Below are positions 2,827-2,860 of a stretch of DNA of 5,842 nt, piece after piece. Made by a program: the position numbers and the translations under genes. The stretch is from Escherichia coli (lineage in GTDB: Bacteria > Pseudomonadota > Gammaproteobacteria > Enterobacterales > Enterobacteriaceae). The DNA lies in NCBI RefSeq assembly GCF_003334405.1, contig NZ_QOWM01000032.1; one strand, 5' to 3'. Within the stretch, counting starts at the first letter, position 1; each line of letters begins with the position of its first letter. Below the pieces are notes generated by a model. It saw only the letters and a list, made by a program, of their open reading frames with translations. It was not told where the DNA came from and made no database searches.

Positions 2827-2860
2827 CCGCAGATTCCAGATTTTAATCTGGAATTTGCGG
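2827..2860. promoter_or_regulatory. Inverted repeat / stem-loop in the 81-nt intergenic gap (candidate operator, RNA processing/stability element or weak terminator)
   Basis: CCGCAGATTCCAGAT-TTTA-ATCTGGAATTTGCGG. As RNA this is a 15-bp stem (14 Watson-Crick plus one G-U) with a 4-nt loop. As DNA it is a perfect 10-bp palindrome ATTCCAGATT-tt-AATCTGGAAT. Not followed by a U-tract on the + strand (GGTTGAACAACC). Sits in the only substantial gap of the gene array (2808-2888). Confidence 0.5.

Follow-up and report, generated by a model that had tools for sequence, protein, structure and literature searches.

A probable phiX174-type primosome assembly site conserved in IncX plasmids

The window analyzed here, a 5,842-nt stretch of an Escherichia coli genome assembly (contig NZ_QOWM01000032.1), matches the IncX4 plasmid NZ_CP070012.1 (L002) with 100% identity, and on this basis we assign it to the IncX4 plasmid backbone. 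All of its genes run in a single direction, in the order taxB, cag12, trbM, an 85-aa ORF, a hairpin, a 144-aa membrane ORF, a thermonuclease gene, two hypothetical genes and topB. A first-pass annotation, made from the letters of the window, had placed the hairpin between the 85-aa ORF and the membrane-ORF/nuclease pair, which agrees with the annotated gene order. The hairpin belongs to a larger element that lies directly 3' of the stop codon of the last gene of the T4SS-taxB operon and that, in most IncX plasmids, points the same way as transcription. The features of the locus are as follows.

7-1824, same direction as all genes of the window: taxB.
2817-2884, + strand: the whole element, two stem-loops, matched by covariance model R1 over its full length (1-69 of 69; 82.1 bits, E 3.5e-18).
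2823-2864, + strand: stem-loop 1, AAC-G-CCGCAGATTCCAGAT-TTTA-ATCTGGAATTTGCGG-G-GTT.
2866-2882, + strand: stem-loop 2, within the near-invariant 23-nt 3' block GTTGAACAACCGAAGGGCGTTAG (2862-2884).
2885-2888, + strand: a TTTT run separating the element from the start codon of the 144-aa ORF.
2889-3323: the 144-aa membrane ORF, with its ATG at 2889.
3320-3835: the thermonuclease gene.

The hairpin gap is not the only sizeable intergenic gap of the window, as had been claimed, since the gap at 4256-4559 exceeds it. Within this larger gap lies a 70-aa strongly hydrophobic ORF (4316-4528) that is absent from the annotation of the record, and a 25-nt imperfect inverted repeat (arms 4144-4168 and 4307-4331) reaches into it. 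The 144-aa membrane ORF and the thermonuclease gene overlap by 4 nt (ATGA, 3320-3323 of the window), which suggests translational coupling. The small membrane ORF is missing in several IncX relatives, in which the nuclease then lies directly 3' of the element.

The hairpin had been described at 2827-2860 as a 15-bp stem with a 4-nt loop and a perfect 10-bp palindrome, and these details are correct. Residues 2827-2841 pair with 2846-2860 through 14 Watson-Crick pairs and one G.T pair (2832/2855), the loop (2842-2845) is T-rich, and the palindrome is ATTCCAGATT/AATCTGGAAT. The described extent is real but too small, because the stem runs past a G.G mismatch (2826/2861) to a closing AAC (2823-2825) and GTT (2862-2864). 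A repeat search returned inverted-repeat arms of 20 nt (2823-2842 and 2845-2864) that are 90% complementary. The first-pass annotation also overlooked the conserved 3' stem-loop at 2866-2882, in which the outer pairs are 2866-2882, 2867-2881 and 2868-2880, and the inner pairing joins CC (2871-2872) with GG (2876-2878). The complete unit, at about 2817-2884, is ~68 nt long. The free-energy calculation suggested in the first-pass annotation gave a minimum of -31.6 kcal/mol for the 81-nt gap as RNA (z = -6.4, 0 of 200 shuffles as good), and the 70-nt core as single-stranded DNA gave -19.0 kcal/mol (z = -6.1, again with 0 of 200 shuffles as good). The folding is far beyond chance, both as RNA and as single-stranded DNA. 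The opposite strand folds more weakly, at -24.9 kcal/mol as RNA and -14.6 with DNA parameters.

We characterized the pairing further by counting base pairs across homologous copies. The 42 distinct variants of stem 1 contain 653 Watson-Crick, 78 G.T and 3 A.C pairs. Since a G.T pair on one strand is an A.C pair on the other, the strand under selection is the one that carries the tail 3' of the hairpin, the + strand of the window. Pairing holds in 90% of the cells of a 37-sequence alignment; shuffled alignments give 71%, none of 500 attaining the observed value, and sliding the partners lowers the figure to 33-43%. Compensatory changes occur in 12 of the 17 pairs. The lower stem of stem-loop 1 shows compensatory changes in 9 of 12 pairs. 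Stem-loop 2 is paired in 98.9% of cells. The outer pair occurs as A-T (23 sequences) or G-C (14 sequences), an inner pair as C-G (18) or G-C (18), and the second pair is C-G in phiX174. The G.T/A.C asymmetry, the stronger fold of the + strand and the covariation in both stem-loops together reveal a strand-specific secondary structure.

To get a broader picture of its distribution, we searched plasmid sequences. By blastn, window ~2814-2890 was the only stretch alignable across IncX1, X2 (R6K), X3, X4, X5 and 'IncU'-typed relatives, with the flanks diverging. A query with the element only matched 1,560 plasmid records, of which 1,500 are conjugative. The copies share a 5' AAC, usually the G.G mismatch, a 15-16-bp stem, a T-rich loop, the GTT closure and the 3' block, and changes in loop length are tolerated. 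The sequence of stem 1 is unconstrained, whereas the 3' block is near-invariant, either GTTGAACAACCGAAGGGCGTTAG or the variant GTTGGACAAGCG(A/C)AGCGCGTCAG. For example, the IncX3 stem (AATAAAATT/AATTTTATT) and that of copy 1, the second copy in L011 (TTAAACAATACATAT/ATATGTATTGTTTAA), are both unrelated to the stem of the window, with the base and tail the same. The hairpin is thus a real, strongly conserved and functional-looking element. None of the records examined annotates it, a search of the window and of the small plasmid L014 with the Rfam 15 covariance models at permissive E-values gave no relevant match, and a full-text search of papers for the tail string found no match.

The element extends beyond conjugative plasmids. 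Its small-plasmid carriers include a 2.1-kb Rep_1 plasmid, qnrD/MOBQ plasmids and 2-kb pHW126-like plasmids. A BLAST search of a phage collection with the element recovered only 20-26-nt tail matches (Microviridae and one P2-like phage) and did not recover phiX174. A degenerate tail pattern also recovers the element in Microviridae-sized contigs and in ~30-kb contigs, and the latter are P2-like, encoding a nicking-at-origin (HUH) protein, portal and terminase. These carriers pass through single-stranded DNA stages, and the distribution thus fits a function in single-stranded DNA. The P2-like copies would accord with a requirement for priming on the strand that gpA-type rolling-circle replication displaces. 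A GC-rich version (AACCCGGAACGGGTGCGCAAA-TTC-...) occurs at 3777-3847 of the IMG/VR contig L025 and in ~14 other IMG/VR contigs (25-38 kb) of P2-like (pro)phages, placed between a ParM-like partition gene or regulatory ORFs and the portal gene.

IncX3 and the sequences L051 and L054 each carry two copies on opposite strands, implying that both strands would be served there. The IncX3 copies (L013; 2457-2527 on the + strand and 3766-3836 on the - strand) are convergent at a distance of 1.3 kb, with trbM, a hypothetical gene and the nuclease between them. The small-plasmid tail variant is present in the second of these copies, suggesting independent acquisition.

The covariance model R1 derives from 31 copies of plasmid or chromosomal origin and includes no phage sequence. 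In phiX174 it found a sole significant match, at nt 2302-2371 of the viral strand (66.2 bits, E 5e-14). Two microvirus contigs scored 75.9 bits, in the gap equivalent to that between genes F and G, after a 426-aa capsid ORF. An alignment of 10 sequences, comprising phiX174 nt 2306-2372 (ATAACGCCGAAGCGGTAAAAATTTTAATTTTTGCCGCTGAGGGGTTGACCAAGCGAAGCGCGGTAGG), the element of the window and eight further copies, is in register and has 18 invariant columns. The element is therefore homologous in both sequence and structure to the PriA-binding site in the F-G intergenic region, with stem-loop 1 corresponding to the phiX174 5' stem at nt 2308-2326 and stem-loop 2 to the short hairpin at nt 2353-2373. 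A 2026 saturation-mutagenesis preprint on phiX174 takes the hairpin with the 5' stem at nt 2308-2326 to overlap ori(-) and to be the PriA binding site, and this hairpin also overlaps the terminator T_F; the short hairpin (nt 2353-2373) precedes a poly-U tract and is functionally important, mutations on both of its stems being detrimental (bioRxiv 10.64898/2026.07.25.740675). The pas is the site where PriA, PriB, PriC and DnaT load DnaB on SSB-coated phiX DNA (PMC5778457).

The phiX174 site (F-G intergenic, nt ~2302-2373) shares with the window element the two-stem-loop architecture, the AAC...GTT closure of stem 1 with the adjacent G.G mismatch and T-rich loop (ATTTTAAT), and the location on the strand with mRNA sense. 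Its 3' block reads GTTGACCAAGCGAAGCGCGGTAG in comparison to GTTGAACAACCGAAGGGCGTTAG in the window, and the differences are compensated within stem-loop 2. In contrast, the stem-1 sequence is unrelated and the poly-U terminator context is not conserved. The replicons also differ, a 5.4-kb ssDNA phage versus a 32.6-kb theta-replicating conjugative plasmid, implying that the element strand is single-stranded in the plasmid only transiently, at the fork or in transfer. We interpret the + strand at 2817-2884 as a phiX174-type primosome assembly site (PAS, also n'-pas or PriA-dependent ssi), with a probability of about 0.82. By homology, the IncX4 copy would be PriA-dependent and, like the phiX174 site, active solely as single-stranded DNA. 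The first-pass suggestion of a structure formed in single-stranded transferred DNA came nearest to this reading: it had the single-stranded function, but it did not recognise the identity as a PAS homologous to that of phiX174 and overlooked vegetative exposure of the lagging strand.

Primosome assembly sites of the phiX174 type have been known as a kind since 1980, and Nomura et al. reportedly cloned ssi signals from R6K in 1991. Thus the kind of element is already known, and what is modestly new is the unannotated IncX copy, a well-defined sequence family with an invariant stem-loop 2 across Microviridae, P2-like phages, IncX and small plasmids, and the probable membership of the phiX174 short hairpin in ori(-). 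The papers on pHW126, pIGRK and pIGMS31 describe an 'ssi-like palindrome', related to the ssi signals of Nomura 1991, that is a non-essential cis element and whose loss leads to multimerisation. The elements of the pHW126-family small plasmids and of related enterobacterial plasmids of 2-4 kb fall into this sequence family, with R1 scores of 63-70 bits for L020, L014 and L018 and the tail variant GTTGGACAAGCGCAGCGCGTCAG. Their element adjoins the origin (ssi, then CR, then iterons), whereas that of IncX4 is far from the iterons.

One of these, the 2.1-kb plasmid L014 (NZ_CP058873.1, 2121 bp), encodes a rolling-circle initiator, Rep_1 (Pfam PF01446, E 2e-68). Its pC194-type nick motif, an exact TCTTGATA, is on the same strand as rep, and the element is on the other strand. 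The element is thus not always placed as a rolling-circle single-strand origin, and we dropped this identity for the L014 copy because of its orientation opposite to the nick motif. L014 also encodes an RHH-domain protein with a hydrophobic C-terminus, and both its PAS and a pHW126-type 'conserved region' lie opposite the rep strand. Because it carries this pHW126-type ssi-CR module, L014 looks like a chimera of two small-plasmid lineages.

Other known priming signals are more distant. The ColE1 n'-pas ssiA and ssiB are PriA-dependent and are used likewise on the strand exposed in replication; as a pair they resemble the opposite-strand copies of IncX3, L051 and L054, with the same proposed mechanism (PMC3167613). 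The ColE1/pBR322 n'-pas was rejected as a family member, as its best R1 match reached only 18 bits (E 0.009), indicating that the element represents a sequence family within PAS elements and not all PAS. The F-plasmid Frpo and G4-type ssi are hairpins that start complementary-strand synthesis in single-stranded plasmid DNA (PMC7690428). Those signals are recognised by RNA polymerase or primase alone and are longer than the IncX4 element, which their sequences do not resemble. They belong to the leading region, whereas the IncX4 element, which by homology would be of the PriA type, is far from either oriT.

The layout of the complete plasmid L002 allowed us to consider when the element strand could become exposed. 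Six 22-bp iterons (TAAACATGAGAGCTTCCTCGGT, 7993-8124, ~8.05 kb) are found upstream of and next to rep, together with a DnaA-box-like TATCCACA. An inverted pair of Tus/Ter-like sites (ATGTTGTAACTA; 12726 on the - strand and 12844 on the + strand) has flanks like those of E. coli Ter. The pair lies between a parA-like gene and dqlB, in the manner of an R6K-style replication fork trap. The trap is ~4.7 kb from the iteron origin one way and ~27.9 kb the other. The long fork crosses the transfer genes co-directionally with transcription, and the element strand is its lagging-strand template. Measured from the iterons, the element at the end of the T4SS operon is ~11 kb away over the shorter arc and ~21.6 kb away along the fork path.

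IncX plasmids have two oriTs in long inverted repeats, one near taxC (taxA/taxC) and one near rep (PMC3402527). In L002 these are 70-nt repeats at 2624-2693 and 9674-9743, inverted and 100% identical, which carry the RP4-type motif CTATCCTG|C just 3' of an inverted repeat. As the copies are inverted and identical, either strand is transferable in principle. At the taxA/taxC-proximal oriT, the CTATCCTG|C nick is on the strand opposite the element and launches the other strand, whereas the nick strand of oriT copy 2 is that of the element. Thus, a role in complementary-strand synthesis in the recipient would apply only to the second oriT, in transfer from which the element would enter late, after ~23 kb.

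Two events could therefore expose the + strand, which is the coding strand for the transfer genes: the long-arm fork, which would run from the iteron origin through the transfer genes to the Tus/Ter trap, would use it as lagging-strand template, and conjugation initiated at the replication-proximal oriT copy would transfer it. Both the vegetative and the conjugative exposure are geometrically possible, and we do not rank them. By analogy with phiX174 and ColE1, both hairpins would resist melting once the strand is single-stranded and SSB-coated, and would mimic an abandoned fork. PriA would bind the hairpins, PriB and DnaT would join, and DnaC would deliver DnaB onto the + strand, after which DnaG would prime and Pol III would make the complementary strand.

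To our knowledge, primosome assembly sites are usually described as structure-specific and without a consensus sequence. In this family, the 23-nt stem-loop 2 block is kept from phiX174 via P2-like phages and IncX to 2-kb plasmids, whereas stem 1 is sequence-free. A portable 'PAS cassette' may have been exchanged between ssDNA phages and plasmids. A joint reading, which we offer tentatively and consider rather doubtful, is that a component of the primosome recognises stem-loop 2 by its sequence and that, specifically in IncX plasmids, the single PAS on the strand launched from the second oriT accounts for the two-oriT architecture. If this were true, the short hairpin of phiX174, recently read as part of a terminator, would really belong to ori(-). 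In any case, the comparative data suggest that this hairpin (nt 2353-2373) is part of ori(-) and more than a terminator alone.

IncX plasmids, among them the vehicles of mcr-1 (IncX4) and NDM (IncX3), play a major part in carrying resistance genes, and the ~68-nt site is among their most conserved non-coding elements, present in ~1,560 records and annotated in none. A PriA-type reading would tie plasmid establishment or replication to the restart primosome of the host (PriA, PriB, DnaT). The site would offer a defined cis target for studying the conversion of transferred or lagging strands to duplex, and a curated model would allow the signal to be annotated in phages and small plasmids as well.

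Among the rival explanations, a main role at the RNA level survives best, but we consider it unlikely. The element would then be an attenuator or terminator, or a 3'-end stabiliser, of the T4SS-taxB operon mRNA, separating it from the nuclease-topB-hns module. Its position just past the stop codon of the last operon gene, co-oriented in most IncX plasmids, would suit this role, but in IncX3 and Pectobacterium the element sits inside a gene block, between cag12 and trbM, and copies in IncX3, L051 and L054 are antisense to the flanking genes. The RNA hairpin is very stable (-31.6 kcal/mol) and G.U pairs are tolerated; however, the 23-nt invariant tail would be superfluous for a terminator, and the same element is found in 2-kb plasmids and ssDNA phages. 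The phiX174 counterpart overlaps T_F, with the short hairpin preceding a poly-U tract, and in the window TTTT follows stem-loop 2. The first-pass annotation had reported no downstream U-tract, which is right for the long stem (followed by GGGGTTGAAC) but misses these four Ts at 2885-2888. The T-run is not conserved and is absent in most homologues, other plasmids having TGACTC, TTGCCC, ACGAGG, AAAGGT or a transposon end after the tail. A consensus terminator scan makes no call, and with the U-tract not conserved we rejected an intrinsic (Rho-independent) terminator. The unconserved T-run, the cag12-trbM placement and the antisense copies indicate that an effect on read-through is not the conserved function, and any such effect on transcription from the T4SS operon would be secondary at most. 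An RNA processing or stability element, as suggested in the first-pass annotation, is thus conceivable as a side effect, given the overlap of the phiX174 homologue with T_F, but not as the conserved function, given the lack of a conserved U-tract, the antisense copies and the occurrence in tiny plasmids and ssDNA phages.

Considerably less probable is an orphan oriT or other substrate of an HUH nuclease, with the relaxase or Rep acting in trans, which would explain the small plasmids that lack a relaxase. The arrangement of a hairpin followed by a conserved 3' tail does resemble MOBQ/MOBP oriTs and IS200/IS605 ends, the folding is strand-specific, and the element is present on small 'non-mobilizable' plasmids. 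However, the tail lacks the RP4-type nick motif and folds into a covarying stem-loop of its own, the homologous site of phiX174 is not the gene A nick site (nt 4306), and no nuclease is common to the carriers. The oriTs of IncX plasmids are elsewhere, in the 70-nt repeats with the RP4-type CTATCCTG|C (PMC3402527). The element has no similarity to these repeats and does not contain the YATCCTG|Y motif, and we therefore rejected an IncX (MOBP, TaxC) oriT.

The operator of a dimeric repressor for the downstream nuclease module, proposed in the first-pass annotation and favoured by the perfect 10-bp palindrome directly upstream of the membrane-ORF/nuclease pair, can be dismissed. There are no conserved half-sites: unrelated sequence replaces the palindrome in IncX3, L011 copy 1 and small plasmids with the pairing kept by compensatory and G.T changes. 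The 78 G.T versus 3 A.C pairs show single-strand folding and not a symmetric duplex reading, loop length varies, plasmids that lack the nuclease or carry a transposon insertion retain the element next to the upstream operon, and a search of the replicon for an operator regulon found the palindrome and the tail to be single-copy.

Several other identities were considered for parts of the element and rejected. The attC sites of integrons, at the 3' end of gene cassettes, have R''/R' boxes with the consensus RYYYAAC ... GTTRRRY flanking an imperfect hairpin. In the element, GTTGAAC agrees with GTTRRRY, but the 5' box, which is TGTAAAC in the window and GATAAC in most copies, departs from RYYYAAC, and attC sites have nothing equivalent to the invariant stem-loop 2. 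A promoter was rejected since the scan pairs TTGAAC in the tail with TATGAT only in this plasmid, the -10 position being unconserved elsewhere. The likeness to an RfaH/ActX ops-like site (GGCGGTAG versus GGGCGTTAG) was dropped, as the block is a paired stem-loop common to phages and tiny plasmids. A Tus/Ter site in the tail (GTTGTTCAAC versus GTTGTAAC) was likewise rejected, the true Ter-like sites of L002 being at 12.7-12.85 kb.

In R6K (L012, from ~5063) and in the IncX1-typed plasmid L007 (from ~2563), the terminal repeat of a Tn3-family transposon, GGGGTCGTTTGCGGGAGGGGGCG, which we take to be Tn5393-like, begins 2 nt past the last base of the element. This indicates that the boundary 3' of the element is an insertion point for cargo.
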